Assembly (NCBI RefSeq): GCF_008189525.1
Contig: NZ_CP043314.1
Location: 180,001 to 212,000 of the forward strand
Origin: Candidatus Saccharimonadota bacterium
GTDB lineage: Bacteria > Pseudomonadota > Alphaproteobacteria > CAJXXZ01 > 1604HC
DNA: 32,000 nucleotides
Direction of reading: 5' to 3'
Below, piece after piece: positions 2,932 through 24,155 of this stretch; the first letter of the stretch is position 1; every line of letters begins with the position of its first letter. The position numbers and the translations under genes were made by a program. The notes beneath the pieces were generated by a model, which was given only the letters and a program-made list of their open reading frames with translations, did not search any database and was not told where the DNA came from.

Positions 2932-3753
2932 ATGTTTATTTTAAAAAATATAATAAGAATTTCAAAATTTATTTTTCAAACACAAATTATTTTTTTATTC
3001 TGTTTTAAAATATACTCTAAAGAAGTTATTTTTAATAGAGAGTATGAAGGGTTAAGTAATGGGTTTTTAGAATCTATGAACGCCCAAGCTGATTCTTATA
3101 CTAAGCAAAACCCAGAATCAAAAGAAAGATATGACGAATTTATTGAAACACTAAGAAAATCTTTAATAATAAGCGATGATAATGAAAAGATTGTTCAATT
3201 GCAATGTACGGCAAGAGCATTTTGCAGAGTAAAAGGAAATGATCTTGTTTTATATTTAAATACGCATAGATTCATAAAAGAAAATGCAAACGATGAAATT
3301 CCTGAAGAAGAGGGCTCAGGCATGACATTTAGATCCATATTACTTCCAATTAGTGATGCCAGATCTAAAGGGTATTTAGGATCTTATGATGGGCAGGTTT
3401 TTATAACTGTCCATGCTTTTCTTGACAATATGGATAAGATTAAAAAAAGTACAGTTTCTTATACAGGAAATAATTTTAATACTCCAATTATTATTCTAGA
3501 AAAAGATGATTCTAGTTCTGGAGATTATAAATATTTCACTATAAAGAATGGTTTATTAGATAGCTTAGAAAGCTTTAAAGATCAAGAAATTGAAATTGAT
3601 CCATTTATTTTTGTTGCAGATTATAGTGCTAAGGATTTTGTAACAGAAAATTTATTTAGGTCTGATATTATCAGACAAACAATAGAAAAAGATGGAGATT
3701 ACTTTGATTATAATAACGCAAAAATAAAATTAACTAATATAGATGGATTCTAG
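2932..3753 (+). CDS. Signal-peptide protein, copy A of the five-member C-x5-C paralog family (function unknown)
   Basis: Long ORF in AT-rich, stop-rich DNA with a strong SD. The N-terminus is hydrophobic (MFILKNIIRISKFIFQTQIIFLFCFKIYS). Conserved blocks shared with the other copies are YDEFIETLRKSL, LQCTARAFCRVKGNDLVLYLN (Cys codons 3205-3207 and 3223-3225), FRSILLP...GQVFITVHAFLDNMDKI and IEIDPFIFVADYS. The ORF track starts it at 2905. Confidence 0.8.
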   Translation: MFILKNIIRISKFIFQTQIIFLFCFKIYSKEVIFNREYEGLSNGFLESMNAQADSYTKQNPESKERYDEFIETLRKSLIISDDNEKIVQLQCTARAFCRVKGNDLVLYLNTHRFIKENANDEIPEEEGSGMTFRSILLPISDARSKGYLGSYDGQVFITVHAFLDNMDKIKKSTVSYTGNNFNTPIIILEKDDSSSGDYKYFTIKNGLLDSLESFKDQEIEIDPFIFVADYSAKDFVTENLFRSDIIRQTIEKDGDYFDYNNAKIKLTNIDGF

Positions 3754-3919
3754 TATTGGTACAGACTTGAAATATAGATTAAATTTTTTATTTAAGCAGA
3801 AATTTAATTTTAATTCAATTTTCCCATTTAAGTTTTTGCACATTTAAAATACTTCTTTTATCTAGCATTTTGGTTTTATTTGTTTGCAGGAATAACTTAA
3901 TCTGCAGATATTATGTATA

Positions 3920-4345
3920 ATGTTTGCAATGTATAATTACTTAAATTATTTTTGTGATCTGGTGAACTACGTTTTTGTTTGCTTTCAAGGTGTATCCATA
4001 GATTTGAAATCAATGCTTATGTTTGTATTATTAAATAGGAATAGAGCTAAAAATATAAAGCTATATTCAATATACACTGTTTATATTTTACTTAATTATT
4101 TTATTACAAATAATTTATTCATTTTCGATATTTTATTTGATTTTATTTCTGCATATATTGTACAAGCATATGGAATGAAATTTTTCCACTTTTTGACAAT
4201 GAGGAGTATATATTTTTTGATATCAGGATATTTAGGGATTTCTGCTGGTATTCTGTTGCAAAACTATTTATGTACTTATTTAATAACTATGGTTTTTTAT
4301 ACCTGTTTTTTGAATATCCGTTTAAAAATAAAGGCTTATAAATAA
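3920..4345 (+). CDS. Small polytopic membrane protein; possible MreD by position only
   Basis: A 141-codon ORF is unlikely by chance in DNA this AT-rich, where stop codons are frequent. It is very hydrophobic with several predicted TM segments and ends 5 nt before the mrdA ATG at 4351. No sequence motif that I can tie to MreD. The start is uncertain and has no clear SD. Confidence 0.45.
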   Translation: MFAMYNYLNYFCDLVNYVFVCFQGVSIDLKSMLMFVLLNRNRAKNIKLYSIYTVYILLNYFITNNLFIFDILFDFISAYIVQAYGMKFFHFLTMRSIYFLISGYLGISAGILLQNYLCTYLITMVFYTCFLNIRLKIKAYK

Positions 4346-4350
4346 CTTAT

Positions 4351-5991
4351 ATGGAAAAGAACTACAAATTAAAAGTGTTTTTCATTTTTCATTCTTTGCT
4401 TATATTTTGTCTTTTTATTAGGTTTTTTTATGTACAAGTGTCTAAAGGTAAGAAGTACTTCGACATGTCTATGAAGAATTTTACTGTAGAAAGGAAAATA
4501 GAACCCCCTAGAGCTATTTTTTGTGATAGGAATAACACTATAATCGCTGATAATATACATAAATTTGATTTGATAATTTCTACTAATAAAAGAAAAAGAT
4601 ATTTAGAAATAACAAATAAAATAAAGGAATTTATTCCTGATATAAAAATTAATAAGTATAATTTCTCGCACATTCTAAAGAGAAATATAAACTGGGAAGA
4701 GCTTTGTTTAATAGAGAGGTTAGATATACCAGAGGTATACACAAAACAAGACTATAAAAGGGTATATATATTTAAATCTGTTGCAAATTTGATAGGGAAT
4801 TTGGTTACAGAAAATAGAAAATTAAGCTCTGGATTAGAGTCATTTCTATTAAATAAAATAAAAGGAAAAGAAGGAATTGAACAAATGAAAGTAAATGCAT
4901 TTGGTGAGATTTTATCTAGAAAAGCAACTTTGAATCCAGAACAGAATCCTCCTGTACAGCTTTCTATATGTATGAGCATGCAAAATAAAGCTTATGAATT
5001 GATTTCTGAAACTAGAATAGGATGTGTTTTGGTGACAGATTTGAAAACTGGAGAAATCCTTGTTTCTGCTTCTCATCCTTCTGTGGATACGAATAATTTC
5101 AATCAAGATTGGAACGATCATATAAAAAACAGAGACAATCCTTTGTTAAATAGAGTTTCTTCAGGATTATACCCAATAGGATCAATAATGAAAATCTTTG
5201 CGACACTTTATTTGCTAGAAAATAATATAGTTGATGAAAATACTACTGTAAATTGTGATGGAGAATTTACATTAGGAAACCATACATTTAAGTGTTGGAA
5301 ATCTCATGGGCAGAATATAAATTTACAAAAAGCTATATCTGAATCATGTGACATATACTTTTATACTATGTCTAAGAAGGTAGATTTAATAGATTATTTG
5401 AATTTTCTCAGAAAATTGGGATTCCAATCAAAAATAGATGTTATGCATAATGAGAAAAAAGGTTTTTTCATAGAAAAGAAAAGATATTACTTATATGAAA
5501 AGCTATTAACTTTAATCGGGCAAGGTTTTTTTCAATGCACTCCGCTAGAGCTTACCTTAATGATGAATAGATTTCTTAGTAACTCAAATCTAGATCTTAA
5601 GATTTTAAAGAATGAAAATTCTGAAATGAAATTTGAAAATAATGATGAAAATGAAAAACCGCTTTTTTCTGTTAAGAATATAGAAATGTTGGGACTTGCC
5701 ATGAAAAATGTTCTTCAAAAGAGCAAGGGAACGGCACACTATGCTTGGATCATAAATAAGAAGCCAGATATGGGTGGGAAAACTGGTACTGCTCAGGTTT
5801 GCAGGCTTTCGAAAGAAGAATATGGATTAAGCATACATAAGAAGAAATGGGAACGTAGAGAGCACAGTTTGTTTTGTGGATATTTGCCATCAGATAATCC
5901 TAGATATTGTATAACTGTAGTTACTGAGCATGATAATTTAGCTAAAAGCATAGCTATAAGATTATCAAAGTACATAGAATCTATTTTGTGA
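4351..5991 (+). CDS. mrdA: Penicillin-binding protein 2 (elongasome transpeptidase)
   Basis: N-terminal TM anchor (LKVFFIFHSLLIFCLFIRFFYV). Active-site SxxK is in GSIMKIF. Also present are the SCDIYFY region, IGQG...TPLEL, and KTGTA (the KTG box) near the C-terminus. Length and layout are typical of class B PBP2. Confidence 0.88.
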   Translation: MEKNYKLKVFFIFHSLLIFCLFIRFFYVQVSKGKKYFDMSMKNFTVERKIEPPRAIFCDRNNTIIADNIHKFDLIISTNKRKRYLEITNKIKEFIPDIKINKYNFSHILKRNINWEELCLIERLDIPEVYTKQDYKRVYIFKSVANLIGNLVTENRKLSSGLESFLLNKIKGKEGIEQMKVNAFGEILSRKATLNPEQNPPVQLSICMSMQNKAYELISETRIGCVLVTDLKTGEILVSASHPSVDTNNFNQDWNDHIKNRDNPLLNRVSSGLYPIGSIMKIFATLYLLENNIVDENTTVNCDGEFTLGNHTFKCWKSHGQNINLQKAISESCDIYFYTMSKKVDLIDYLNFLRKLGFQSKIDVMHNEKKGFFIEKKRYYLYEKLLTLIGQGFFQCTPLELTLMMNRFLSNSNLDLKILKNENSEMKFENNDENEKPLFSVKNIEMLGLAMKNVLQKSKGTAHYAWIINKKPDMGGKTGTAQVCRLSKEEYGLSIHKKKWERREHSLFCGYLPSDNPRYCITVVTEHDNLAKSIAIRLSKYIESIL

Positions 5992-6229
5992 AATTTGAGT
6001 ATAAAATTACTCTATATTAATTTTCCTACATAAAAAAATTACATAAATGAAATTGTTTTTAGTATAAATCCCAATTACAGTATGATTTCTAATTATCGTG
6101 TTTTTTATTTTTACCTTGCTAGTTTTGGATTATAATTAAAACTTTCTTTTTAAAAAGATACTATAAATTGATGTGAATGATTTTTGTAAATATTTTAATA
6201 TAGGAATTTTTAAGAATTTGTAAACAAAA

Positions 6230-6303
6230 CGAGAGTGACGGGACTCGAACCCGCGACCTTCGGCGTGACAAGCCGACGCTCTAACCAACTGAGCTACACC
6301 CCC
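6230..6303 (-). tRNA. tRNA-Asp (anticodon GUC)
   Basis: The reverse complement reads GGGGGTG TA GCTC AGTTGGTTA GAGC G TCGGC TTGTCAC GCCGA AGGTC GCGGG TTCGAGT CCCGT CACTCTC G. This folds as a cloverleaf with a 7-bp acceptor stem (two G-U pairs), D arm, anticodon loop TT-GTC-AC, a 5-nt variable loop, and a T arm identical in sequence to the E. coli tRNA-Asp T arm as I recall it. Discriminator is G. CCA is not encoded. Confidence 0.93.
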
Positions 6304-6525
6304 GTTTGTATAAGAATCATACATTATAGTTTCTTTTTTTAAAAGAGTATAAGAGATTTATTGTAAAAATTTGGTGGCTTTTTATGTTGATTTATAGATG
6401 TTATTTTTTGTAAAATCCTTCAATGTTTTACTGAATAATATTACATTTTATATTTTTAATAGGCATTTAATTCATACCTATTATCATATATTAGAATTTA
6501 ATATTAGAATTCATTTCTTATAAAA

Positions 6526-9362: not shown

Positions 9363-10142
9363 TTATGCTGATTCCTCTTCTTGCATCTCTTCCGTTTCTT
9401 CAGACCTCAAATCTATATTATCTTTTATATTTTTCTGTTCATAAAGTTTTGTTCTTGAGAATTCTTTTAGTTTATTTATGCTTTCACTATATTCAGCTAA
9501 GTTATATAAAGGATCTATAAATAAGTAATAATCATCTCCGAGCTTATTTGCCATATCATCTATTGCGTATTCATTCGCATAAAGGAAAATTTTAGTTCCT
9601 TGATCTATAAATATGTAATTGTATTTATCCTGAAGAATTATTTCTTCAGTGCATTCAAATAACTTTTCAAGATTATTTATAAAAGCATCTAACATGATGC
9701 ATGTTTTACCTTCTATTACCTTTAAGTAAGGTTTTATAGCTTCCATGTCTAATGATATATATTTGAAATTAGGCTTATACCCATCATTTGAGCTTGGTAT
9801 ATCAGAATTTTCGTTGTGATTCATAAAATTTACATACAAAGTTACTTTGTTTCCAGAATTTACCCTACAAAATGCATTTCCAGTACAGTGTAACTTTTTT
9901 GATAATTCATCAGATTTTGATCCAATAGTTTTTTCTACAGTGTCTATAAAATCTTCGTAAGATTTCTTTTTAGGGTCGTTAACATCTTTTTTATCAGTTT
10001 TTTGTTGCAGATCTTGTACAAAACTAGAAACACTAGAACCAAATTCTTCATCAAAAGTGATTTCAGATTTGATATTTAATGTAAAACATAAAAAAATTGA
10101 CAATATATTCCTTGTTTCTTTGCATATTGATTTATTTAACAA
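9363..10142 (-). CDS. Signal-peptide protein, copy B of the C-x5-C paralog family (function unknown)
   Basis: TTG start with GGAGA 6 nt upstream; there is no in-frame ATG near the N-terminus. Hydrophobic N-terminus is ILSIFLCFTL. Family blocks are YEDFIDTVEKTI, LHCTGNAFCRVNSGNKVTLYVN (Cys codons 9885-9887 and 9867-9869), FKYISLD...GKTCIMLDAFINNLEKL and YLFIDPLYNLAEYS. It is closest to copy A, with shared E[VI]xF...E[YF] and N[DS][ED]IP. Confidence 0.75.
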   Translation of the reverse strand: MLNKSICKETRNILSIFLCFTLNIKSEITFDEEFGSSVSSFVQDLQQKTDKKDVNDPKKKSYEDFIDTVEKTIGSKSDELSKKLHCTGNAFCRVNSGNKVTLYVNFMNHNENSDIPSSNDGYKPNFKYISLDMEAIKPYLKVIEGKTCIMLDAFINNLEKLFECTEEIILQDKYNYIFIDQGTKIFLYANEYAIDDMANKLGDDYYLFIDPLYNLAEYSESINKLKEFSRTKLYEQKNIKDNIDLRSEETEEMQEEESA

Positions 10143-10219: not shown

Positions 10220-12757
10220 TTATAATTTTCCGAAATTACAGTACGCTTCTAATTTATCTATACATAACCCTAGGATTTTTTGTACATTTTTATCCTCAGA
10301 TATAAAAACATTTTCAAATATTTCTTCTACTTCTTTTGATATATGGTACAGATTCTCTAAATTCAATTCAGATTTAAGTAAATGTAACAGAGAAGGATAG
10401 CTAGAGAAATCTGCAAGATTTTCTGGAATTTCTATATTTACTGTTTTGTAATTTTCGAACTTATTTGGTTTTTCTGATTTCGTTAAATTTATATTGTTTA
10501 ATCTTTTATAGATTGATACTACTTCACTTAATTTCCCATTTTTGTTAAATAGATCTATTTCATTTAATTTATTTTTAGAATTCCAGAAATAATCTGATTT
10601 GTGTATCAATTTGCTTACATTATTCAACTTGTTAAATTCTTTTGTATTTAAATATTCAATTCTTTTTTCTATAAATGGAATTACATCTTTTGTTTTGTGC
10701 AGTGTGATTCCTTGATTCTCATATTCATTACTTAGAAAATCAATTAAAGCATGTAAATCAGGGAATTTGTTTACTAGTTCAGATTTTTCATTGCTAATTT
10801 TACAGATTAATTCTTGATTTAAATAAAAACCTAAATCAACTAACTCAAGCGCTTTACGTCTAATTCCTAAAGGGTCTGATGATCCTGTTGGTGTGAATCC
10901 TTTTCCTATAAACCCTATTATAGTATCCAATCTATCAATGAACCCTAAAATCGCACTTTCAAGATTTTGTTCTGATTTAGTCAAGATTGAGTTTTTGATG
11001 ATTTTTCCTACAGTTTCTATGTTTATGTCATGGTTACTATTTTTTATTTCAAGAGGCTCATTATCATTTTTCTGATTTGTTATATTTTCATTATTATTGC
11101 AGTTAATTTTTTCATGTTGTGAAAAGAAAATTTCTGATAAATGGCCTCTTAATCCATTTATTTCATCTAAACAGCCCATACATAATTCAACTTGGTAAAG
11201 TTCAGAAGCTTTAAGTAATGTTTTATATTCTGAATCTCCTAGTAATATTGTGCTTAAGTTTAATTTTGTGTTGGAATTTATTTTTTCTATCTGCTTTTCA
11301 AGAATCTTCATTACATATGCTATAGAATTAGAAACTCTTTCTTGTTTCTGTCCTAACGAACCTAATGAATCAAAAAATGTAGTTTGTGCAAGTTTTTTTA
11401 AATATGATTCTACTGAAGTAGAGCAATCTTTTTCCCAGAAAAATTCCATATCATTTAATCTAGCTGCTAGAGATTTTGTTTTTTGAGATATTATAAATTT
11501 ATTGCATTCTTTTTCTGAGACTACTATAAATTCACTGTGTAGCTTATAACCTTTCTTTAATTCTGCTGAGTGAACCTTCTTTATATTATTTTGCAAATTT
11601 AGATTGTTATCATTAATTTGTGTATCATTATTCTCTTTACAAAGATTTTTTTGATCTGAATTTTGATCTACATTAATATTCATTTCACTTACTTTGCTTT
11701 TCTCAAACAAAGGTATATGCATATTTCCTTTTATAACCTCATATATAATTTGATCAGGTAGATTGGTTTTAGGTGATTGTGCTTTATGAACGAAAATAGA
11801 TTCAGCTTCTTCAGAAATGTATTCTAAATCTTCTTTAGAATAATATTTGGTTTTGTAATCTTGTATGCAAAATTCTTCATTAGGTTTATTTGAATCCTTT
11901 GAATCCGAGTTACATAAATTAGATTCATTAGAAGCATTGTGATTACAGCTTGCAGAGCTGGCATTGGCAATTTTAGAAATTTCAGATTCGACTTTTTCAA
12001 CTTTTTCAGACAAAGTTAAGAATATATTTTTCTTAGCTAGTTTTTGCAAGTAATCCTTGAAAGAATTTGCATGAAATTCTGTCTTTTCTTTCAGATTGTA
12101 CAAAAAACTTTGTGATGTAGTTATTTCAAATTCGTTAAAGTACCAAAGGAGTGGCATTCCATTTAATAGAGACACTATTCTTCTTACAGGCCTTATCCAT
12201 GGTTGTTTTTCTGTCCAACGCATGAATTCGTTCCATTTCATTGTTTTTATTGATTCTTTTGTCACTTCATACAAAATTTCATTTATTGGATTGCTCTCAT
12301 AGGTTTTTTTTATATACAAAAATCCATTTTTTTCATATAAATCTGTTTTTTTCTTATCATATTTATTTAGGAATTTTTCTACTATATTTTTATCAATTTC
12401 TTTTTTTGGTCCTTTTATTTCTTCTGAATCTTTTTGTACTGCAAATGGTAAGTTCGTAACATGAGAAACAAGTTTGTTTTTAGTGATATATGAGGTTGTA
12501 TTGAATCCTTTTATATGTTGAGAAACAAGGGCTTTTGATATACATTCATTCCATTTTGATAAAAAGGTCTGGGAGCTATTTGGTATGGATTCTTGTGAAA
12601 ACTCTACAATCCATTCATTTGAATTTTCATTTTCTGTGTTTAGGATTTTATCTATGTTTTCTATAGTATTTAGGACGTGACCTTTTGAATCTTTTGATAA
12701 AGAATTTGAATCTTTGTTTATAAGATTATGTTCTGATGTTTTATTGTGATTATTCAT
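10220..12757 (-). CDS. glyS: Glycyl-tRNA synthetase beta subunit, with low-complexity insertions
   Basis: Lies immediately downstream of glyQ. Conserved blocks are WIVEFSQESIP (matching the usual N-terminal LVEIGTEELP type), FMRWTEKQPWIRPVRRIVSLLNG and FTPTGSSDPLGIRRKALELV. At 845 aa it is clearly longer than the roughly 690 aa I recall for E. coli GlyS, because of N/S/K/D-rich inserts. Confidence 0.9.
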   Translation of the reverse strand: MNNHNKTSEHNLINKDSNSLSKDSKGHVLNTIENIDKILNTENENSNEWIVEFSQESIPNSSQTFLSKWNECISKALVSQHIKGFNTTSYITKNKLVSHVTNLPFAVQKDSEEIKGPKKEIDKNIVEKFLNKYDKKKTDLYEKNGFLYIKKTYESNPINEILYEVTKESIKTMKWNEFMRWTEKQPWIRPVRRIVSLLNGMPLLWYFNEFEITTSQSFLYNLKEKTEFHANSFKDYLQKLAKKNIFLTLSEKVEKVESEISKIANASSASCNHNASNESNLCNSDSKDSNKPNEEFCIQDYKTKYYSKEDLEYISEEAESIFVHKAQSPKTNLPDQIIYEVIKGNMHIPLFEKSKVSEMNINVDQNSDQKNLCKENNDTQINDNNLNLQNNIKKVHSAELKKGYKLHSEFIVVSEKECNKFIISQKTKSLAARLNDMEFFWEKDCSTSVESYLKKLAQTTFFDSLGSLGQKQERVSNSIAYVMKILEKQIEKINSNTKLNLSTILLGDSEYKTLLKASELYQVELCMGCLDEINGLRGHLSEIFFSQHEKINCNNNENITNQKNDNEPLEIKNSNHDINIETVGKIIKNSILTKSEQNLESAILGFIDRLDTIIGFIGKGFTPTGSSDPLGIRRKALELVDLGFYLNQELICKISNEKSELVNKFPDLHALIDFLSNEYENQGITLHKTKDVIPFIEKRIEYLNTKEFNKLNNVSKLIHKSDYFWNSKNKLNEIDLFNKNGKLSEVVSIYKRLNNINLTKSEKPNKFENYKTVNIEIPENLADFSSYPSLLHLLKSELNLENLYHISKEVEEIFENVFISEDKNVQKILGLCIDKLEAYCNFGKL

Positions 12758-13815: not shown

Positions 13816-14964
13816 TTAATTTTGTTTAATATGTTTTATATTTTCTAATTTATGTAAAATCTCTCTTTCCAAAGATTCTAAAAGTGTTATATCTATGTTT
13901 TTTTCTTTTTTAATACAAATTAACATTTCGAAAATATGACCTAGTATTGGATCTTTTTTGAAAATTTCTGATGCGTAATTCTTTGCAGAATTAAATATCC
14001 CAAAATCTATAGAAGCTTTAGTTAAAATAACAAGTGAACTTAATTCATTTTCAAACTTAGATACTAAATTCTCTACCATACTGAATTGCTTTGAATCTAT
14101 TTTGTCAATCAGCTTTAAATAGTAAATTCCTAGCTTAATAGAGTGGTTTTTTCTCCAAAATGCTTCTATTATTTCTAATTTCTGATTCTTATTTCTTTTT
14201 GTTAAGATTAGTTCATTAACAATATCCTCATTGTTTGGGTTTATTTCAAATGCATGCTCTATTTTCTGTACATCTTTCGTTGTTTTATAGTGTTCTAAAA
14301 GAACTAATGATTTTTTTTGTAAATATGCATTTTTGACTATTAAGTTGTCTCTTAGCATTTCTTTTAGTATTTCAATTGCCTTGTCGAAGTTCTTATTTAT
14401 AATTAAGCAGTTTATGAAATAATCATAAATATATTTTCCTACTTTAAAGTTCATTACTAAATATTCAAAATGCTTCAATGATTCTTCATAATTTTTGTCT
14501 TCATATGTTTCATTTGCTTTTACAAATGTACGTAAAGCCTTTGTTTTTAGTGTTTTATCTATCTTTGATGCAATGTCTAGATCTTTACAGTCACTTAACA
14601 AGAATCTTGAGATTAAATATGCTTGATCTGGATCTTTCATTTGTAGCAGAGGAGCTGGTTTGTTTCCCAGAATTTTTAGTACTACATGATTTGCTAACTT
14701 ATTATGCTCCTTTATTTGGTATTTTTTTTCTCTAGATTTGCCTATGGATTTGAAGAAATTCTTAATAAAAAACATCATCTTTGTAAGATAAATAGAAAGC
14801 ATTGAGAACAAAACTATATACATAAATACATCCCACACAGTAAGCGCTATGTTTTCTTCTGATAAGAACTGTATGTCTAAATTCTTTAGCGGATAAAATA
14901 TATATCCGAAGAATGTTAAAACCAGTAATGGTTTGAAAAGTTTGTAAATTATCTTAAAAAACAT
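13816..14964 (-). CDS. HemY-like membrane protein with helical (TPR-like) repeats
   Basis: Two N-terminal hydrophobic helices (LLVLTFFGYIFYPL and VWDVFMYIVLFSMLSIYLTKMMFFI) bracket a short DIQFLSEENIAL segment. A basic stretch follows (KSIGKSREKKYQIK), then repeated amphipathic helices (NYEESLKHFEYLV, FDKAIEILKEML, and others). This is the HemY_N-type layout, as in E. coli HemY. The start ATG overlaps the upstream stop. Confidence 0.6.
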   Translation of the reverse strand: MFFKIIYKLFKPLLVLTFFGYIFYPLKNLDIQFLSEENIALTVWDVFMYIVLFSMLSIYLTKMMFFIKNFFKSIGKSREKKYQIKEHNKLANHVVLKILGNKPAPLLQMKDPDQAYLISRFLLSDCKDLDIASKIDKTLKTKALRTFVKANETYEDKNYEESLKHFEYLVMNFKVGKYIYDYFINCLIINKNFDKAIEILKEMLRDNLIVKNAYLQKKSLVLLEHYKTTKDVQKIEHAFEINPNNEDIVNELILTKRNKNQKLEIIEAFWRKNHSIKLGIYYLKLIDKIDSKQFSMVENLVSKFENELSSLVILTKASIDFGIFNSAKNYASEIFKKDPILGHIFEMLICIKKEKNIDITLLESLEREILHKLENIKHIKQN

Positions 14965-14966
14965 TA
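14962..14966 (-). promoter_or_regulatory. TAATG stop/start overlap (translational coupling) between the 371-aa ORF and the HemY-like gene
   Basis: On the minus strand the sequence reads TAATG. TAA (14964-14966) ends the upstream ORF and ATG (14962-14964) starts the downstream one, sharing one nucleotide. Confidence 0.6.
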
Positions 14967-16079
14967 TTTATCTCTGCTTTCTATTTTTAACTGTTTATTG
15001 TTGTCATTTTTTGTATATTCTGATTGATTTTTGATTTCATGATTATTTTTACTGACCCTATAATTCATTCTACTGTTAATCTTATTTTTATTTATTAAAT
15101 CATTATAGGTTTTGTTATCGTTATCAGTTTTATCATTATTAATTCTATTTTCGTTTATTTTGCTTCTAACATGATTTTCTGCGTTTCTTACTTCTGTATA
15201 AGCTTTGATCCACATTTCTGCATCTTTTAACCATTTTTCGGCTTTGCTTCTTCTATAGCAACTACTAAAATGTTCATTTTCGTATTCTTCTTTTTCAAAA
15301 CTTGCTGTTTTATGCACGATTCCATTTTTAATGTCTGATTTGTTTTGCTTGAACTCTTCACTATATTCTTCAGGGTTTTGATTTATTTTTAAGTCTTGAT
15401 TATCTTTTACAGCTTCTATGTCTGGAAATGACTTGTGTTGCTTTAACATTGCTTTTGTAAAATGCACTGCTTTTATTAATCCATATATATCTGTAGATAT
15501 TAAAGAACGTACATTCATTGCTTGTTTGTATTCCGATTTCCAATAGCAAGAGAAGTCTTTTATTCTGCTTTTAACGAAATAGGATACAGAGTATATGTAT
15601 GCTAGGAATCCTTTGTCTTTTCTTGGAAATATTAAGCTATAAAATGGAAATGAATTTTTCAAGCTATGAAGTGAGATGTTATGTTCTTTAAGCTGATTTA
15701 TACTCTCGAAATCTGATTTATATTCTGAGATCGGATTAAATCTCGGATTTGAATTGTTAGTATTATTTTGGGTTTTATATGATTTTTTAGAGCAGCTTGT
15801 TTTTCTCTTGAAAAAATTAAAATTCCATCTTTTAAATCTTCTTTTTGTAGTAGAGCTGTCTTTTGTAGGACAGTAAGATCTAGTTTGTGGTTGGTACGAA
15901 AGTAGTATTAAGTAATCTTCATATTTTGGTATGTTTAGTGCGTTTTCTTTTGTTTTTCTATGTGTATTTATTGAATTAGATTCAATTTGTATGTTTGTTT
16001 TATTTTCTTGTGGCATGCAAAAAGAATTCTTACAAAACATTCCTAGAAGAACTGTAATTACAGAAGCATATAGTCTCAT
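14964..16079 (-). CDS. N-terminally anchored or secreted low-complexity protein; candidate HemX/Mic60-like partner of the HemY-like gene
   Basis: A 371-codon ORF with a hydrophobic N-terminus (MRLYASVITVLLGMFCKNSF) and N/K/S-rich composition. The C-terminal half has a hydrophobic-plus-basic segment (FLAYIYSVSYFVKSRIK) and an amphipathic AEKWLKDAEMWIKAYTEVRNAE helix. It is coupled to the HemY-like gene. The functional call rests on synteny, not on a confident motif match. Confidence 0.5.
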   Translation of the reverse strand: MRLYASVITVLLGMFCKNSFCMPQENKTNIQIESNSINTHRKTKENALNIPKYEDYLILLSYQPQTRSYCPTKDSSTTKRRFKRWNFNFFKRKTSCSKKSYKTQNNTNNSNPRFNPISEYKSDFESINQLKEHNISLHSLKNSFPFYSLIFPRKDKGFLAYIYSVSYFVKSRIKDFSCYWKSEYKQAMNVRSLISTDIYGLIKAVHFTKAMLKQHKSFPDIEAVKDNQDLKINQNPEEYSEEFKQNKSDIKNGIVHKTASFEKEEYENEHFSSCYRRSKAEKWLKDAEMWIKAYTEVRNAENHVRSKINENRINNDKTDNDNKTYNDLINKNKINSRMNYRVSKNNHEIKNQSEYTKNDNNKQLKIESRDK

Positions 16080-16851: not shown

Positions 16852-17201
16852 TAACTATTACTAGAGTTAATATTTATAGATAGAATAATTAAAAAAATCA
16901 AATAGATACAATTCAAGTTGTACGGTAAATTTAAATGTGCAATAAAATCAAATGGATGCACATGTTTAGATTGCTTATTTTAAATAGGTTTTAAGTTATG
17001 AAGTATATTTATTATTGATTGTGGTGTAGAAGGTTTGTGACAAGTTTTATTGTACTTATTGATTTATAAAGATATTTTGGTTTTATTTTTTTTACAGTTA
17101 AGAATCTTATGTTGTACGAATTCTTACATTCTTGATTAAAAATGTGTGCTAGTTTATTAAATGGGATTATATCTTGTTAATTCTTGTTTCTGAAAGGATT
17201 T

Positions 17202-18737
17202 ATGAATAAAAGTTTTGATATAGAAATATCAATTGAAGAGAAGGTTAAATGGATTCAAGTTATAAGGTCTAGAAATATAGGCCCTGTAACATGTAATTAT
17301 TTGTTTAGAAGATACAAAAGTATAAATGATGTAGCTAAAAGCTTGTTATCCGATAAGAAAGAGCTGATTTTAGAATCTGAAGCCAGAGCAGAATTAGAGA
17401 ATGTAGAAAAAATTGGAGGAAACATTATAACCTTCAATGACCCTAAATATCCTGCGTTGTTAAGAAATTTACGTGATGCCCCTCCAGTTCTTTCAGTAAA
17501 AGGAGATTTATCTTTGCTTGAGAAAAATGATAAGTTTTTTGCTGTAGTTGGTTCTAGGAATCCTTCAATACAAACCCAAGCAATAACAGAAAGATTGTCA
17601 AAAGGCTTAGGTGAAAAAGGTTATATTACTGTGTCTGGCTTGGCTAGAGGAGTAGATACAGCTGCTCACAAAGCATCTATAAGAAGTGGCACAATTGCAG
17701 TTATTGCAAATGGAATAGATCAGGTTTATCCAAGTGAAAATATGCATTTGTCTGATATGATTTCAAAAAAAGGTTTACTTGTTTCTGAAGTTAAGTTTGG
17801 CACTACACCTTCTCAACATCTGTTTCCTGCTAGAAACAGAATAATAGCAGGGATAAGTTTGGGTGTTTTGGTGGTAGAAGCTGGATTAAAATCTGGATCA
17901 CTAATTACTGTAGACTTTGCTTTAGAAAATGGTAGAGAGGTTTTTGCTGTTCCTGGCTGTCCTTTAGATCCAAGATCAAGAGGCACAAATAAGATGTTGA
18001 AGGAAGGTGCTGTGTTGGTAGAAAATATATACGACATAGTTGATAATATTCCTACAGAAGATGATGTTGAGAATAAGAATGTTTTTTTGGATTCTGAAAA
18101 AAATGAAAGAAAAATCTTGGAAACTGACTTAACAAATAAATCAAATCATGAAATTAACAGTGTAAAAGGTAGTAGTGTAAAAAGTGTGAAGAATATATTT
18201 AGTGAAAATAATTCGTTTGAAAAAAAAGATAATATTAATGAGCCGAAGGGTTGTGATTCAGAAAATATTGATTCAGAGCTACTAATTAATAATTTAAATA
18301 AAAAGAATTTAGAAAATATACCTAACTCAGATGGCTTGGATGTTCCTGATTTAGAAAACAAATCCGATTCTAATGAATCTCGTTGTGGAATAGATGTAAA
18401 ACATAATATTTCTGAAGAAGAGTCTAAAGATAGTAAAGTTAACAAGGGAAATATGCAGAATCATATATTTAAAAATATCACATTACCTTTCAGCACAGAA
18501 GATGTTAATGAAGATGCTCTATCTTTTAATAAGAAAGGTTGTGAAATCTTATCTTGCAGTAAGATAGATCTGAAGAATTATATATTATCCCTAATTGGAT
18601 CTAGCGCTATTTCTATAGAAAGTATTGTAGAAAAAATGGAATTACCTCCTTCCGAAATTAGATCCATTCTTGTGGAATTAGAACTGGAAGATAAAATAAT
18701 GCATTTAGTAGGAGACAAAATTTCCAGAATTTTTTAA
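17202..18737 (+). CDS. dprA: DNA-processing protein DprA/Smf, with a large low-complexity insertion
   Basis: The Rossmann-like core is VVGSRNPS...SGLARGVDTAAHKAS...AVIANGID..YPSEN...FPARNRIIAGISLGVLVVEAGLKSGSLIT...GREVFAVPG. A C-terminal winged-helix-like tail follows (SIESIVEKMELPPSEIRSILVELELEDKI). The ATG at 17202 follows AAAGGA; the track's first M is a TTG at 17184. Confidence 0.92.
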   Translation: MNKSFDIEISIEEKVKWIQVIRSRNIGPVTCNYLFRRYKSINDVAKSLLSDKKELILESEARAELENVEKIGGNIITFNDPKYPALLRNLRDAPPVLSVKGDLSLLEKNDKFFAVVGSRNPSIQTQAITERLSKGLGEKGYITVSGLARGVDTAAHKASIRSGTIAVIANGIDQVYPSENMHLSDMISKKGLLVSEVKFGTTPSQHLFPARNRIIAGISLGVLVVEAGLKSGSLITVDFALENGREVFAVPGCPLDPRSRGTNKMLKEGAVLVENIYDIVDNIPTEDDVENKNVFLDSEKNERKILETDLTNKSNHEINSVKGSSVKSVKNIFSENNSFEKKDNINEPKGCDSENIDSELLINNLNKKNLENIPNSDGLDVPDLENKSDSNESRCGIDVKHNISEEESKDSKVNKGNMQNHIFKNITLPFSTEDVNEDALSFNKKGCEILSCSKIDLKNYILSLIGSSAISIESIVEKMELPPSEIRSILVELELEDKIMHLVGDKISRIF

Positions 18738-18765
18738 TTTCCAGGTTTATCTAAATTAAAATTTT

Positions 18766-19683
18766 TTACTTGGGTTTTGCCATTGCTTTAATCTTTTTTA
18801 ATTTCTCTGGATTGAATACATCTTTTGTAGAATAGGGTTTGAGTTTTTCAAATGATTCTTTAAAAAACTTCTTGCTTTGGTCAGTAATTTCCATTTCAAA
18901 TTCTTCCAATATTTGTTCAATAGACAAGGCGCTTGAATTATATAAAGTTGAGAAATTTAGCAAAACATAAAGGCTCATTTTTTCTTCAGCTTCTGTATTA
19001 GTATTTAACGCATCAACTTCTTTAGTTAAGGTTTTATTTTCCCCTTTTAAATAGAGTGCAGGAATGTTGTAGTTCATTAATGCAGGCCTATCTTGCTGTT
19101 CTTGTAAATAGAGATCTGCAGAATTTTTAAAAAATGCTTCTTCGCTAATTACATAAGTTCCATCTATGCTTTTTATAAATTTAATTGCGTTTTTCAAATC
19201 TATAGAAGCGTATGTAACAGAGGCATCTGTATAGAATAAAATTACTTTATCACCTTGTTTTCTAGCAAAAAAACTGGTTGAAGATTGAAATGGGCTTTTG
19301 AGTGATTCTAGAACAGTTTCTGTGAAATCTTTTGCAATCTGTTCATGTCCTGTTTGGATTTTTGCAGTATGCATCAGTTGGTATTCTATTTCTTCCAGAT
19401 CTGGCTTACTAATTGGATCTGCGAAATACTTACTTATGGAAGTGTAATCTTTTACTTGAAGAACAGTGCTTTGAAGTTGTTTTTCATGTAAAGGAGCTTG
19501 ATTAGGATCAAAATCTCCAAAAAAAGAAAACTCTAATTCTTTCTCTTCAAGCATGTTTGAATGTTCAATTTCAGTTAATAATTCTTTTTCTTGCACTGCA
19601 GCTATAGCTCTGTTTGTAAAGGATAGAAAAATTGTCAAAATTTGGAAAAATTTCTTTATCTTGTTTCTAATTTTTATATACAT
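18766..19683 (-). CDS. Signal-peptide protein, copy C of the paralog family (cysteine-less variant; function unknown)
   Basis: The signal peptide has an AxA site (FFQILTIFLSFTNRAIA/AV). It shares FGDFDPNQAPLHEKQL with copy E (GFDFDPSQAMRNKQEL). Its core QSSTSFFARKQGDKVILFYTD aligns to C-x5-C-[RK]-V...LY of the other copies, with Cys1 replaced by Ser and Cys2 by Ala (19264-19284). ASIDLKNAIKFIKSIDGTYVISEEAFF and SLYVLLNFSTLYN match family blocks 3 and 4. Confidence 0.75.
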   Translation of the reverse strand: MYIKIRNKIKKFFQILTIFLSFTNRAIAAVQEKELLTEIEHSNMLEEKELEFSFFGDFDPNQAPLHEKQLQSTVLQVKDYTSISKYFADPISKPDLEEIEYQLMHTAKIQTGHEQIAKDFTETVLESLKSPFQSSTSFFARKQGDKVILFYTDASVTYASIDLKNAIKFIKSIDGTYVISEEAFFKNSADLYLQEQQDRPALMNYNIPALYLKGENKTLTKEVDALNTNTEAEEKMSLYVLLNFSTLYNSSALSIEQILEEFEMEITDQSKKFFKESFEKLKPYSTKDVFNPEKLKKIKAMAKPK

Positions 19684-19782
19684 AATCTTAATATATCATA
19701 TTATTATTAAAAACCTAACAAATTTCATTAGATTATACAGAGCATATTGATTATATGTTGTATATGTGCATTAATTCTTCTT

Positions 19783-22278
19783 ATGAGACTTATAATAGTA
19801 GAGTCACCAACGAAAGCTGTTGCAATATCTGGATATCTTAAGGGATTTGAAAACGGACCTTATAAAGTAATAGCGAGCTATGGTCATGTAAGAGCCCTTG
19901 CTAAAAAATCTGGATCTATAGATGTAGAAAAAGATTTTAAAATGAAATGGGAAGATGTTAGTACAGCTTCTGAAGTTATTAAAAAAATTGTAGATGAAGC
20001 GAAAAAGAGTAAAGAAGTTATTTTAGCTACTGACCCTGATCGAGAGGGTGAGGCGATTTCTTGGCATATAGTGCAAATTCTAAGAGAAAATAAAGTAGAT
20101 GTTAAATTCAGTAGAATGGTATTTAACTCTATTACTCCAAATGAAGTAAAAAATGCTTTAAAGAACTTAAGATCTATAAATGATGAGTTAGTAAGTGCAT
20201 ATAAGGCTAGGAAAGCTTTGGATTATTTGGTTGGATTTAATTTATCTCCTGTTCTATGGAAAAAATTGCCATGTAGATCAAACCAAAAGGTTCAATCTGC
20301 TGGTAGAGTTCAATCTGCAGCTTTAAGAATAATTGTTGAAAGAGAAAATGAAATAGTAAACTTTGAATCAAAACCTTATTGGACAATAAGTGGAGATTTC
20401 GTGCAAGAAACAAATTCATTCGAAGCAGATTTAGATTACTATAATAATGAAAAAATAGAGAAATTTTCTTGGACAGAGGATTCTGTAAAAGCGGCAAAGG
20501 AAGTTTTAGAGAAAGAAGAATACTCTGTTTCTAAAATAGATAAAACTGAACAGAAAAGGAATCCATTAGCTCCTTTTATTACATCTACAATGCAACAAGA
20601 AGCAGCTTCTAGACTGGATTGGAAGCCTTATGAAACTATGAGAGTTGCTCAGAAACTTTATGAGGGTGTTAAAGTTGGTTCTGCTGTGATCGGTTTGATT
20701 ACTTATATGCGTACTGATTCTGTAAAGATATCTGATCAAGGAATAAAAGAGTGTAGAGATTTTATATCTGATAGTTTTGGAAATAATTATGTATCTAAGT
20801 CTGTGAATCAATATAAATCTAGGGCGAAAAATGCTCAAGAAGCTCATGAAGCTATTAGGCCAACTAAATTTGATTTTACTCCTGAAAAAGTACAGGATTA
20901 TTTAGATGAAAAATCATTGAAATTATATAGATTGATATGGAATAGATCTGTAGCATCTCAGATGAGTCACGCACTTTATGATAAAATGACCATAAATATA
21001 GAAAGTAAAAGTTCTGCTTGGAAATCTACTGGTTCAAAGCTTAAGTTTGATGGATATCAAAAAGTTTATGGCAAAGAAGAATCTGAAGAGCAGGTTATAT
21101 GGAATTGCAAGGAAGGTTCTGTAAGTTGTGATGAAGTTAATATAAACCAACATGAAACGAAACCACCTAACAGATTTACAGAAACAGGGATTATAAAATA
21201 CCTAGAAGAGCATGGTATTGGTAGACCAAGCACTTATGCAAATATATTGAGCACCTTAGAGTACAGAGGATATGTAACGAAAAACAGGAAAACTCTGATT
21301 CCTTCTGAGATAGGTTGGTTAGTTACTGGATTTTTGAAAAATAATTTTGAAAAATTCATAGAAAATGATTTTACATCTGATATGGAAGAAAAGCTTGACT
21401 CTATAGCTAATGGTAAGCAAGATTTGCATGAATTATTAGAAACATTTTGGAAGGATTTTGAGAAATATATAGAAAAAACAGACGATTTAGATCCTAAATC
21501 AGTTATGCTTGATATTTCTTCTACTTATACAAAATTTTTCTTTGATCAAGATGAAATTCCAAATTGTCCAAAGTGTAGTGATGGTAAGCAAGAGTTGAAA
21601 GTAGGTAAGGGGTCTGCATTTTTGTCTTGCTCTAATTATCCTGATTGTAATTGGTCTAAATCTGCATCTAGTAAAATTGATTCAGATATGATTTTGGGAG
21701 ACGATCCTAAAACTGGTTTGCCAATAGCTTTGAAATATGGACCTTATGGGTATTATTTACAAATTGGGCAAAAATCTGACACAGATTTCAAAAGAATAGC
21801 ACTTCCTAAAAATATGAAAGATCCAGGAAACATGAATTTGGAAAATGCTTTGAAAATTGTAAACTCTGATTCTGTTTTAGGAGATGACCCTGAAACTGGT
21901 TTGAAAATAAATTTGAAACATGGGCCATATGGATATTATATACAAATAGGAGAAAAATCAGATGAAGGATTTAAGCGTATTCCTGTGCCAAAAATATTCA
22001 GAAATCCAGAAAATATTACTTTCGAAGAAGCTATAAAAATCAGATCCCTTCCATTGAAAATGGGAGAATACAACGATCACGATGTGCATGTAGATATAGG
22101 TAGGTTTGGTCCGCATTTGTTATATAATAATGTTTATATTTCCATTAAAAAGAGAAATCCTTTCGAAGTTACATGGGATGATTGCTTAGAAATATTAGAA
22201 AGCCCAGAATCAAAAAAGAAAATAGATCAGAAATCTAAAGAAAAACCTAAGAAACCTAGGAAATCTTACAAGAAATAA
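19783..22278 (+). CDS. topA: DNA topoisomerase I
   Basis: The TOPRIM start is MRLIIVESPTKA, with ATDPDREGEAISWH. The catalytic region contains LITYMRTDS (the active-site Tyr context). There is one C4 zinc ribbon (CPKC...CSNYPDC), then C-terminal repeats and a Lys-rich tail. The ATG at 19783 gives the canonical N-terminus; the track starts at a TTG at 19747. Confidence 0.95.
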   Translation: MRLIIVESPTKAVAISGYLKGFENGPYKVIASYGHVRALAKKSGSIDVEKDFKMKWEDVSTASEVIKKIVDEAKKSKEVILATDPDREGEAISWHIVQILRENKVDVKFSRMVFNSITPNEVKNALKNLRSINDELVSAYKARKALDYLVGFNLSPVLWKKLPCRSNQKVQSAGRVQSAALRIIVERENEIVNFESKPYWTISGDFVQETNSFEADLDYYNNEKIEKFSWTEDSVKAAKEVLEKEEYSVSKIDKTEQKRNPLAPFITSTMQQEAASRLDWKPYETMRVAQKLYEGVKVGSAVIGLITYMRTDSVKISDQGIKECRDFISDSFGNNYVSKSVNQYKSRAKNAQEAHEAIRPTKFDFTPEKVQDYLDEKSLKLYRLIWNRSVASQMSHALYDKMTINIESKSSAWKSTGSKLKFDGYQKVYGKEESEEQVIWNCKEGSVSCDEVNINQHETKPPNRFTETGIIKYLEEHGIGRPSTYANILSTLEYRGYVTKNRKTLIPSEIGWLVTGFLKNNFEKFIENDFTSDMEEKLDSIANGKQDLHELLETFWKDFEKYIEKTDDLDPKSVMLDISSTYTKFFFDQDEIPNCPKCSDGKQELKVGKGSAFLSCSNYPDCNWSKSASSKIDSDMILGDDPKTGLPIALKYGPYGYYLQIGQKSDTDFKRIALPKNMKDPGNMNLENALKIVNSDSVLGDDPETGLKINLKHGPYGYYIQIGEKSDEGFKRIPVPKIFRNPENITFEEAIKIRSLPLKMGEYNDHDVHVDIGRFGPHLLYNNVYISIKKRNPFEVTWDDCLEILESPESKKKIDQKSKEKPKKPRKSYKK
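21691..22056 (+). repeat. Two tandem 183-nt (61-aa) coding repeats inside topA (topoisomerase C-terminal repeat type)
   Basis: ILGDDPKTGLPIALKYGPYGYYLQIGQKSDTDFKRIALPK... is repeated as VLGDDPETGLKINLKHGPYGYYIQIGEKSDEGFKRIPVPK... exactly 183 nt downstream. A third, degenerate unit follows (GRFGPHLLYNNVYISIKK). Confidence 0.85.
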
Positions 22279-22325
22279 AGCTGTAATAATTATTCCTAAT
22301 TAATATAAATGCTCAATCTATATAT

Positions 22326-23108
22326 TTATTTTATAGATTCTTGTTCTTTTATGTATTTTGCATATTTTTTAAGGTCATTTATGGATTTTATCTCATTGTT
22401 TTTTGAAAACTCATAAGTATGTTTATATTCTTTAAGTTCTTCCATATCAAAATTATGGAGTAAATCTCCATAAGATTTTGCAATGTAGTTAAGAGATGAA
22501 AAATAAACTGCATCTACGTAAGTATAAGTTTGTTCATCTTTTATTAAATTGTTTTGAAAATTTTCATCAGATTCAACAAAAAATTTAGAACCATCACTTA
22601 CTAAAGTTTTACCAAGTCTAGGTGCTATATCAATAGAACTTAATGCAATCATTGACACCTGTGTTAATGGATATACGTCATTAATCTCTTCTATAATGTT
22701 TTGAGGTTTATTAAAATAACTAACGCTTAAGCAAGTTATGCCATTAACTACAAGCAAATAATCTTTGATTTTATCTATTTCTACATTAAGGAAGTTGAAC
22801 CCTCTCCCATAATCTATGAATAATTTAATGTGGTTTTTGTCCAATACCCTGCAATAAGCTTTTGTTGAACATTGTAATTTGGTTTTGTGAGATTGTTCTA
22901 TTGTGTCTATTAAGCTCAAGTGATCTGTTTTTGATGCTTTATAAAGATTTTGATATTCAACAGATTTTCCATCTCTATCTTTAAAATCTGTTTCAACTTT
23001 ATCTCTCATTTCTTGAAGATCTTCTGCTTTAGGTGCATAATCTACTTGCAGAACCTCAGCAAATGTAAATGACATTAGAAATAATATTAGTGATATAAAA
23101 AAATTCAT
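22326..23108 (-). CDS. Signal-peptide protein, copy D of the C-x5-C paralog family (function unknown)
   Basis: ATG with GAAGGA upstream. Signal peptide is MNFFISLILFLMSFTFA/EV. Family blocks are VDYAPKAEDLQE, LIDTIEQS...LQCSTKAYCRVLDKNHIKLFIDY (Cys codons 22869-22871 and 22851-22853), FNFLNVEIDKIKDYLLVVNGITCLSVSYF and YTYVDAVYFSSLNY. Confidence 0.78.
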   Translation of the reverse strand: MNFFISLILFLMSFTFAEVLQVDYAPKAEDLQEMRDKVETDFKDRDGKSVEYQNLYKASKTDHLSLIDTIEQSHKTKLQCSTKAYCRVLDKNHIKLFIDYGRGFNFLNVEIDKIKDYLLVVNGITCLSVSYFNKPQNIIEEINDVYPLTQVSMIALSSIDIAPRLGKTLVSDGSKFFVESDENFQNNLIKDEQTYTYVDAVYFSSLNYIAKSYGDLLHNFDMEELKEYKHTYEFSKNNEIKSINDLKKYAKYIKEQESIK

Positions 23109-23267
23109 TTTATCCTTCTTTCTTATAGATTTGTATTATGCTTAGATTCCTATTTATAAAATACCTTTGTTAATCTTTCTTAGATTTACTAAATTTATAT
23201 GATCTGAGTATTAATGAGATAGGATTCTGGCAAGGTTTTATAGTTTTATCAGATCGTTCTAGCCAGA

Positions 23268-24155
23268 TTAGGTATTTAATTCTGATTGTTCTACTTTTGC
23301 AAGCAATCCATTATAAAATCCCCTTAAGTTATCTATTCCTGAATGTGATTTATGTAAAATTTTTAAGTGTTCTTGGAACTCTTCATCATCACTTATACTG
23401 CCTTCAAAATTGCTGGCGAAGTCTATAAATGGATCAAAGAACAGAAGATCTGTGTAAGAGAAGTTGCTTAATGTACTTATTGCAAGATTTACTACATCTT
23501 TGTTTATAGGATTTATTTGTATTGCTGCACTAAGAAGTGAGTTTTCTCCATCTTCTGAAAGTGCATTAAAAGCTCCTCTTTTAGAGCTTTCTTGTATATA
23601 AATTAACTTTCCTATATGAAGTTGATCAATGAAGGGTTTTGTTTCTTCAGTGAGATTAAAATCCTTTTGTAAGAAATATTTATAGCTGATTCCGTAAGAT
23701 TTGGTATCATTTATATAAACAAGCCATTTCGATATTTCAGATAGTGGTACAGAGAATTTAGCAAAATTTCTTTCAAATTGATTTCCTGAGCTGCTTGTTT
23801 CACTTACACTAAATAATTTTTGATAAACAGATAGGTTTTCTCCATCTACTTTACAGTATGTTGATGTTGTGCATTGTGCCTTTGTTGCATGTGCAGATAA
23901 AATAAGATCGTGCAGTGTGTTATGCTCTTCAAGGCTATTATACTTACTTTTGTCTTGTTCAGGTATGTTAGAGAAATATTCTTCTAATTCTTGCTTGTTT
24001 CGCATGGCTTGACTTGGATCAAAGTCAAACCCAGTTTGAGAGATTACTTTTGCAGGAATTGGGTTGTCATTACTTGCACCAGATATAGATGTAATTCCAA
24101 TCATTGAAAAACATAGTAAAGTTTTAGATAGTATTTTTTTTAATTTTTTGTTCAC
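23268..24155 (-). CDS. Signal-peptide protein, copy E of the C-x5-C paralog family (function unknown)
   Basis: GTG start with AGGGA upstream. Signal peptide is KTLLCFSMIGITSISGA/SN. Family blocks are FDFDPSQAMRNKQELEE, LHDLILSAHATKAQCTTSTYCKVDGENLSVY (Cys codons 23871-23873 and 23853-23855), FAKFSVPLSEISKWLVYINDTKSYGISYKYF and LLFFDPFIDFASNF. Confidence 0.78.
   Translation of the reverse strand: MNKKLKKILSKTLLCFSMIGITSISGASNDNPIPAKVISQTGFDFDPSQAMRNKQELEEYFSNIPEQDKSKYNSLEEHNTLHDLILSAHATKAQCTTSTYCKVDGENLSVYQKLFSVSETSSSGNQFERNFAKFSVPLSEISKWLVYINDTKSYGISYKYFLQKDFNLTEETKPFIDQLHIGKLIYIQESSKRGAFNALSEDGENSLLSAAIQINPINKDVVNLAISTLSNFSYTDLLFFDPFIDFASNFEGSISDDEEFQEHLKILHKSHSGIDNLRGFYNGLLAKVEQSELNT

Follow-up and report, generated by a model that had tools for sequence, protein, structure and literature searches.

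The 32,000-nucleotide stretch of DNA analysed here (the window; G+C about 28%) belongs to Candidatus Nesciobacter abundans and encodes five members, A to E, of a family of small proteins with signal-peptide-like N-termini; together with at least one further copy in the same genome they constitute an orphan paralog family that has not been described before and whose proteins have so far been annotated as hypothetical only. Member B is 100% identical to the N. abundans hypothetical protein P0001 and member A is identical to P0003, and the position of obg places the window at about 481.5-513.5 kb of GCA_960610765.1 / OY490516.1, in a genome of 616 kb (616,088 bp in the GenBank assembly). Earlier reports describe N. 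abundans as a member of the Holosporaceae that lives as an endosymbiont in the diplonemid Diplonema japonicum, residing in the host cytoplasm with the mitochondrion closely apposed and sharing its host with Candidatus Cytomitobacter primus (PMC13598402; PMC13462478). The five open reading frames (ORFs) named in a preliminary description of this DNA were all found in place, and the features of the six copies are as follows (aa, amino acids; nt, nucleotides of the window; signal peptides are predicted, with the cleavage site marked by an arrow where given).

Member A: 2932-3753, plus strand; 273 aa; proposed signal peptide aa 1-29 (nt 2932-3018); core aa 67-187 (nt 3130-3492); Cys92 and Cys98 at nt 3205-3225
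Member B: 9363-10142, minus strand; 259 aa, TTG start; signal peptide aa 1-26 (nt 10065-10142); core nt 9600-9962; Cys86 and Cys92 at nt 9867-9887
Member C: 18766-19683, minus strand; 305 aa; signal peptide aa 1-28 (nt 19600-19683), ending AIA↓A; core nt 18997-19359; Ser134 and Ala140 (nt 19264-19284) in place of the cysteines
Member D: 22326-23108, minus strand; 260 aa; signal peptide aa 1-17 (nt 23058-23108); core nt 22584-22946; Cys80 and Cys86 at nt 22851-22871; in tandem with E
Member E: 23268-24155, minus strand; 295 aa, GTG start; signal peptide aa 1-27 (nt 24075-24155), ending SGA↓S; core nt 23586-23948; Cys95 and Cys101 at nt 23853-23873
Member F: outside the window, in the fabH-gltX interval at about 110.2-111.2 kb of OY490516.1; protein P0006 (QEK39172.1), 308 aa, with the motif DQCTAGAFC

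Shine-Dalgarno-like sequences precede four of the five starts in the window: AAGGAGG just 5' of the ATG of A at 2932, GGAG 5' of the TTG of B at 10142, AAGGA before the ATG of D and AGGGA before the GTG of E, with none obvious for C. The start of A at 2932 is therefore preferred over a longer form from 2905, and for B the form listed above is favoured over the 246-aa GenBank annotation, which is 13 aa shorter. The G+C content of the family genes and that of their third codon positions (GC3) equal those of the neighbouring genes, which argues that they are residents and not recent imports. The predicted mature proteins are hydrophilic, with isoelectric points of 4.6-5.6 and masses of about 26-32 kDa.

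A paralog family with a conserved central core

The relationship among the five ORFs was assessed with leave-one-out profile hidden Markov models (HMMs) of the mature regions, from which the N-terminal hydrophobic segments had been removed, the omitted member being scored against 2000 shuffles of its own sequence. The omitted members reached 40.1 (A), 58.8 (B), 13.9 (C), 37.0 (D) and 38.7 bits (E), as compared with 5-10.5 bits for the top shuffles, and none of the other ORFs of at least 60 aa in the window exceeded about 3 bits with these profiles. The family is therefore real and the five ORFs are true paralogs, as the preliminary description had held. When the same procedure was applied to a core of about 120 aa in all six members the scores were 38.9 (A), 51.5 (B), 21.8 (C), 44.3 (D), 50.8 (E) and 32.4 (F), with top shuffles ranging from 7.6 to 17.6 bits across members. 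Member C is the most diverged copy, scoring 13.9 bits as mature protein and 21.8 bits over the core as compared with about 7-8 bits for its top shuffles; since the core score exceeds the shuffles, its membership is secure. Pairwise identity over the core is 16-35%, in agreement with the idea of old and highly diverged paralogs, and A and B are the closest pair.

Significant similarity is confined to this core, which comprises a helix, the Q-C-x5-C motif and a run of the form YL..I.G...I...F. The preliminary description had proposed four ordered blocks common to all copies. Blocks 2 and 3 stand and make up the core, but block 1 splits into two sub-patterns, E[VI][IT]F[ND]xE[YF] in A and B and [GF]DFDP[NS]QA in C and E, and block 4 does not rise above chance: the C-terminal parts that contain it (77-171 residues) score 1.4-6.9 bits in the window members and -4.5 in the sixth, below the 6.8-15.7 bits of the best shuffles, so that they are not demonstrably homologous. 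Neither is the C-terminal half a repeat of the core, because the core profile scores at most 3.7 bits there. Likewise, the motif C-x5-C-[RK]-V that had been ascribed to all five copies holds for four of them, as Q-C-x5-C-[RK]-V in A, B, D and E, whereas C reads S-x5-A-R-K; the sixth member has Q-C-x5-C-V-Y. Five of the six members thus keep both cysteines and C has neither, a joint pattern of presence and absence that fits a disulfide and an oxidising compartment. Base composition adds an argument for selection: in random sequence of about 27% G+C a stop is expected by simple arithmetic about every 12 codons, so that six intact ORFs of 259-308 codons could not persist by chance and must have been kept open by selection.

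Restriction to N. abundans and location at breaks of gene order

A full-sensitivity HMMER search of 1.84 billion cluster representatives with the five-member profile recovered only the five members and P0006 (E 4.9e-4), all six matches being hypothetical proteins of N. abundans. The family, taken as five-membered in the preliminary description, comprises at least six members and has no homologue detectable outside N. abundans, with the proviso that members as weak as C could escape at the E-values of a whole library. Two word-indexed searches of 5.8 billion sequences, the six-member profile included, retrieved nothing further, nor did the flanks of the window (8.5 kb on the upstream side, 9 kb on the downstream side) or the 21-kb locus that holds the sixth copy contain another member. 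Scans of the full-length proteins and cores against Pfam (E up to 1 for full-length proteins and up to 10 for cores), NCBIfam, PHROGs and PADLOC gave nothing above noise, with isolated single-member matches far below cut-offs. The family is not described in the text and supplement of George et al. (10.1101/719211), nor in those passages mentioning Nesciobacter elsewhere in the literature that were searched.

Two further sets of hypothetical genes came to our attention in these surroundings. About 8.5 kb downstream of the window (L006:19593-20735, minus strand) lies a gene for a 380-aa hypothetical protein with an N-terminal hydrophobic segment and no Pfam match, which the HMM places outside the family. 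Near accB/accC, N. abundans encodes a second small exported family, a tandem pair of 229 and 178 aa (L001:16728-17417 and L001:17507-18043) with 40.5% identity (E 1e-37) and near-identical signal peptides (...FALCVLFSFV...SSLELE); these proteins are beta-rich, resemble outer-membrane proteins (OMPs), end in GIAI(N)RTIK and are unrelated to the six-member family.

The preliminary description had found it striking that five copies should lie within about 21 kb of otherwise housekeeping DNA, and both parts of this remark were borne out. The other genes of the window are housekeeping genes, namely the C-terminal end of nrd, obg, a putative mreD, mrdA, ileS, glyS, glyQ and a hemY-like gene, followed by a gene for a 371-aa protein without known function, plsY, dprA and topA, and further by alr, trxB, mreC, a 5'-3' exonuclease gene, mreB and tyrS. 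If six copies were placed at random on a 616-kb circle, five of them would fall within 21.2 kb with a probability of about 3e-5, which renders the clustering non-random; the sixth member lies about 245 kb away around the circle. The adjacency of D and E points to local duplication. No repeats linking the copies were detected at the DNA level, and a promoter and terminator scan gave no informative signal.

We compared this arrangement with 22-kb TopA-anchored loci from five relatives: C. primus, Candidatus Cytomitobacter indipagum, two genomes of about 620 kb and a 558-kb metagenome-assembled genome. Two of these loci (L007 and L008) show the full order mrdA-mreD-mreC-mreB-exonuclease-glyS-glyQ-hemY-like-150-aa protein-trcR-plsY-dprA-topA; C. 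primus has the same order from the exonuclease onward, and the metagenome-assembled genome keeps trcR-plsY-dprA-topA with the glyQ/glyS block inverted. BLAST supports the homology of the hemY-like, 150-aa and mreC genes. The spacing between dprA and topA is 48-171 bp in four relatives, C. indipagum being rearranged at this locus. In N. abundans member C occupies this gap, B stands beside glyS in place of the exonuclease, D and E follow topA at the junction with alr, and A stands in place of mreC upstream of the putative mreD and mrdA. Searches of 696 six-frame ORFs from the five loci with the family and core HMMs yielded no match (best E 0.05, 9 bits), and the hypothetical proteins found at corresponding positions (e.g. 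277 and 213 aa in C. primus, 101 aa in C. indipagum) showed neither a profile match nor C-x5-C. Given that the relatives keep the ancestral order without the family, each of the four sites in the window represents a derived insertion or a break in synteny. Members A and B lie in inverted orientation around the segment from mreD-mrdA to ileS, which is itself inverted with respect to the ancestral order, and it is tempting to speculate that this arrangement is compatible with recombination between copies.

The comparison with relatives brought up other peculiarities of the region. The genes mreB-mreC-mreD-mrdA are contiguous in L007 and L008, the two relatives whose loci reach them, and in N. 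abundans this cell-shape cluster is found in three pieces of differing orientation, mreD?-mrdA, mreC and exonuclease-mreB (window positions 3920-5991, 26718-27389 and 28618-29667). The 371-aa protein (14964-16079, minus strand) starts with a hydrophobic segment and shares about 45-100 homologous residues with the proteins of 147-161 aa encoded beside the hemY-like gene in Cytomitobacter and relatives, being some 2.5 times longer than these counterparts and bearing N/K-rich extensions. Greater length is also seen in GlyS (10220-12757; 845 aa as compared with 624-647 aa in relatives), DprA (17184-18737; 517 as compared with 360-381 aa) and TopA (19747-22278; 843 as compared with 750-770 aa), which apparently carry low-complexity insertions rich in N, K, E and S; such lengthening is unusual for a reduced genome. 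Within topA a 166-nt direct repeat (21692-22040; copies 72% identical, spacing 183 nt) corresponds to a duplicated C-terminal module, GDDP.TG..I.LK.GPYGYY.QIG (Toprim_C_rpt), which is normal for TopA. In C. indipagum the region 3' of topA (L003:12376-13102) encodes two proteins, one of 101 aa with a signal peptide and one of 157 aa with leucine-rich repeats, so that in different genomes the same junction is occupied by lineage-specific genes for exported or effector-like proteins.

Export, fold and competing explanations

Export was judged by heuristics, i.e. hydropathy windows, lysine and arginine (K/R) counts in the n-region, the residues at -3 and -1, and the presence of later transmembrane segments. 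Each window member starts with a hydrophobic stretch of about 7-15 residues (best 10-aa hydropathy window 2.0-3.0), so that the signal sequences claimed in the preliminary description are plausible in all five. The n-regions of A to E hold 3, 3, 5, 0 and 5 K/R residues, and putative signal peptidase I sites lie at IYS↓K (A), IKS↓E (B), AIA↓A (C), TFA↓E (D) and SGA↓S (E), giving I/S, I/S, A/A, T/A and S/A at -3/-1. None of the five has a later transmembrane segment, in that no 19-aa window exceeds 1.6 after residue 35. The hydrophobic cores are alike, FLFCF, IFLCF, IFLSF, FLMSF and TLLCF in A to E and MLLCI in the sixth member, following the pattern [FL]-L-x-[CS]-F. By these tests the five window members have the features of the Sec/signal peptidase I class, from which we infer, with good support, their export by Sec.

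As for the fold, AlphaFold2 models computed on shallow alignments had low confidence (predicted local distance difference test, pLDDT, 46 for B, 45 for D). The two models nevertheless show the core with one layout (pLDDT 55-76), in which a helix is followed by three to four strands starting from the cysteine pair, a short helix and two further strands, and in both the C-terminal half is left without a resolved structure. Foldseek comparison of the two models with the Protein Data Bank (PDB) gave no match at E <= 0.001, with template-modelling scores of about 0.1-0.16. The earlier statement that no characterised domain is recognisable therefore holds for Pfam, NCBIfam, PHROGs, PADLOC, PDB sequence searches and Foldseek alike, and no known family can be assigned.

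The published gene content of N. abundans provides the frame for an explanation. It is reported to include secABDEFY, gspD, gspF, pilB, pilQ and a modified type VI secretion system, along with 44 predicted signal-peptide proteins and 116 hypothetical proteins, for which George et al. suggested a possible part in host or inter-bacterial interactions (10.1101/719211 and its supplement). According to the same supplement Tol-Pal is nearly absent, and the type II secretion system/type IV pilus machinery (T2SS/T4P) is reduced and without recognised assembly-platform genes, the same remnant being present in Cytomitobacter. Upstream of the window we noted a secretin gene (PF00263, 520 aa; L005:898-2460, about 8.6 kb from the window start) and, after it, a gene for a 1015-aa Tricorn-like/S41 peptidase (L005:2774-5821, about 5.7 kb upstream), which are possible export or processing components.

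On balance we favour, with some confidence, a lineage-specific Nesciobacter family of soluble, acidic, Sec-exported proteins with a core probably stapled by a disulfide and with rapidly diverging flanks, which was locally duplicated after the split from Cytomitobacter. The proteins would consist of a short cleavable Sec-type signal peptide with a conserved hydrophobic core, a variable acidic and helical N-terminal stretch, an alpha/beta core of about 120 aa and an unalignable C-terminal part of 80-170 aa. SecYEG/SecA would translocate them to the periplasm, where signal peptidase I would cleave after a small residue and the cysteines of Q-C-x5-C-[RK]-V would form a disulfide stapling the first beta-hairpin of the core; the variable flanks could then give each paralog its own partner. 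Their place of action would be the periplasm or the cell surface, while the reduced T2SS/T4P secretin or outer-membrane vesicles may carry some of them to the interface with host cytosol and mitochondrion. Both the birth of the family and its growth through local duplication would have taken place in the Nesciobacter lineage once Cytomitobacter had split off, with its copies now marking insertions and rearrangement junctions. A role at the host or host-mitochondrion interface is a plausible hypothesis. A bolder version, in which the proteins are secreted effectors or adhesins of new fold, evolved after the Cytomitobacter split and delivered by Sec and then by the T2SS/T4P secretin or vesicles, and mediate attachment to or envelopment by the host mitochondrion, and in which recombination between copies could also be the cause of the rearrangements that set this genome apart from those of its relatives, appears distinctly unlikely. 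Several observations weigh against the favoured account as a whole: cleavage was deduced from simple rules, member D lacks a positively charged n-region, the annotated N-terminus of the sixth member is weakly signal-like, the models that show the core fold and the hairpin are of low confidence, no copy adjoins a secretion gene, and no expression, proteomic or localisation data for these proteins were found in the literature.

Among the alternatives, the one we take most seriously, while still holding it to be rather unlikely, is that these are structural or chaperone-like housekeeping proteins of the periplasm or envelope, which compensate for lost functions such as Tol-Pal, divide the work among paralogs and do not face the host. 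It would suit the near absence of Tol-Pal and the cell-envelope and housekeeping neighbourhood, where A is directly upstream of the putative mreD and mrdA, E and D are downstream of alr, and B, D and E are codirectional with their neighbours at intergenic distances of 77-159 bp, which makes co-transcription possible. However, such a function would be expected to be shared by the similarly reduced Cytomitobacter genomes, which lack the family at matching positions, just as the 1.84-billion-protein search lacks any match outside N. abundans, and six divergent copies with unalignable flanks fit diversification better than a fixed structural role. Quite improbable, in our opinion, is that the signal is an uncleaved anchor, leaving single-pass inner-membrane proteins with a periplasmic core in a layout like that of PilN/PilO/GspM-type assembly proteins. 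The long helices that the low-confidence models place right after the hydrophobic segment, ahead of an alpha/beta domain, the weak cleavage sites of A and B (I-x-S) and the missing assembly-platform genes of the T2SS/T4P all speak for an anchor, but hydrophobic cores of only about 7-15 residues are too short for a typical transmembrane helix, C, D and E have good A-x-A-type sites, Pfam gave no match to PilN, PilO or T2SSM at E up to 1, and Cytomitobacter retains the same T2SS/T4P remnant without the family.

The remaining possibilities concern the nature of the proteins themselves. If the core were a known periplasmic fold that has diverged strongly, e.g. a Cache/PDC-like ligand-binding domain, the family would not be new but merely unrecognisable by sequence; we hold this to be very improbable. 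The best PDB match of the core profile was indeed the dCache domain of Campylobacter Tlp3 (4xmq; E 0.09, 16 bits), in an alignment that covers the YL..nG strand motif, and the mature size of 230-280 aa is near that of a dCache module; we nonetheless rejected this candidate because its E-value is not significant and the hairpin-like Cys-x5-Cys segment falls on Tlp3 helices. Moreover, the full-length profile finds nothing, the Pfam dCache and sCache models do not match, and Foldseek returned no Cache or PAS structure above noise for either model. That the proteins are lipoproteins, the Cys within the hydrophobic segment (FLFC, IFLC, TLLC, MLLC) serving as a non-canonical lipobox for LspA, is scarcely credible: a Cys does occupy a conserved signal-peptide position in four of six members and lspA (PF01252) lies about 5 kb downstream of the window, but the regular expression [LVI][ASTVI][GAS]C finds nothing within the N-terminal 40 residues of the six proteins, the Cys being preceded at -1 by a bulky F or L; in C and D a Ser takes the place of the Cys, and the hydrophobic residues run on past the Cys, before which the n- and h-regions would be very short. 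Least of all would we expect decaying, non-functional leftovers of duplication; strong divergence, the lack of homologues elsewhere and the lack of expression data might be read in this way, but the six ORFs have stayed intact at low G+C under deletion pressure, the core retains its motifs between saturated flanks, and four of five starts retain Shine-Dalgarno sites.

Relation to known exported families

The preliminary description had likened the family to the Anaplasma/Ehrlichia OMPs and the chlamydial Pmps, an analogy that fails on each structural criterion checked, the proteins being small, acidic and hydrophilic, with predicted helices. With the OMP-1/Msp2/P44 family (PF01617) it does share the occurrence of a multi-copy, partly tandem family of signal-peptide proteins in a reduced, obligately intracellular alphaproteobacterium. 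Those are, however, beta-barrel porins of the outer membrane with a hypervariable centre between conserved flanks, subject to gene conversion, whereas the N. abundans family shows the reverse pattern of a conserved centre and variable flanks in acidic, hydrophilic and partly helical proteins, has no DNA-level repeat between copies and has a C-terminal aromatic residue in only one of six members (A, ending in F); Surface_Ag_2 (PF01617) had no match in the Pfam scans described above. Chlamydial Pmps are likewise expanded and highly diverged exported paralogs of an obligate intracellular bacterium, but they are proteins of 90-180 kDa with GGA[ILV]/FxxN repeats and a C-terminal autotransporter barrel (PF03797), unlike the present proteins of 259-308 aa (26-32 kDa when mature), which have no GGA[ILV] and one or two FxxN, as expected by chance, and no match to the Chlam_PMP or autotransporter models of Pfam.

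Phytoplasmas, also reduced in genome, possess the sequence-variable mosaic (SVM) family of small, secreted and lineage-restricted proteins in which the signal peptide is conserved and the mature part varied. Lineage restriction, a signal peptide conserved between paralogs and a largely variable mature part are common to both families. Nonetheless, SVM members share mainly the signal peptide, whereas conservation in the N. abundans family is strongest in the internal 120-aa core with its cysteine pair, and the SVM signal model in Pfam has no match, hence no sequence relationship is seen. More directly, the family belongs among the 116 hypothetical and 44 signal-peptide proteins of N. abundans, comparable to the signal-peptide hypotheticals of other diplonemid endosymbionts (10.1101/719211), with its six copies making up about 5% of the former and up to 6/44 (14%) of the latter.

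The family is therefore one more example of something well known in obligate intracellular bacteria, namely expanded families of exported proteins, and its unusual aspects are the expansion within a 616-kb genome, the restriction to a single species and the location at synteny breaks. Since copies lie at every break of conserved order in the window, the region illustrates, on a small scale, how genes are born and duplicated in company with rearrangement in a reduced genome. Endosymbiont genomes of about 600 kb mostly lose genes, and a lineage invention expanded to at least six copies is a strong candidate for a host-specific function that is actively needed. The co-resident C. primus has no counterpart at the loci examined, and the family thus provides a concrete handle on the difference between two mitochondrion-associated symbionts that share one host.

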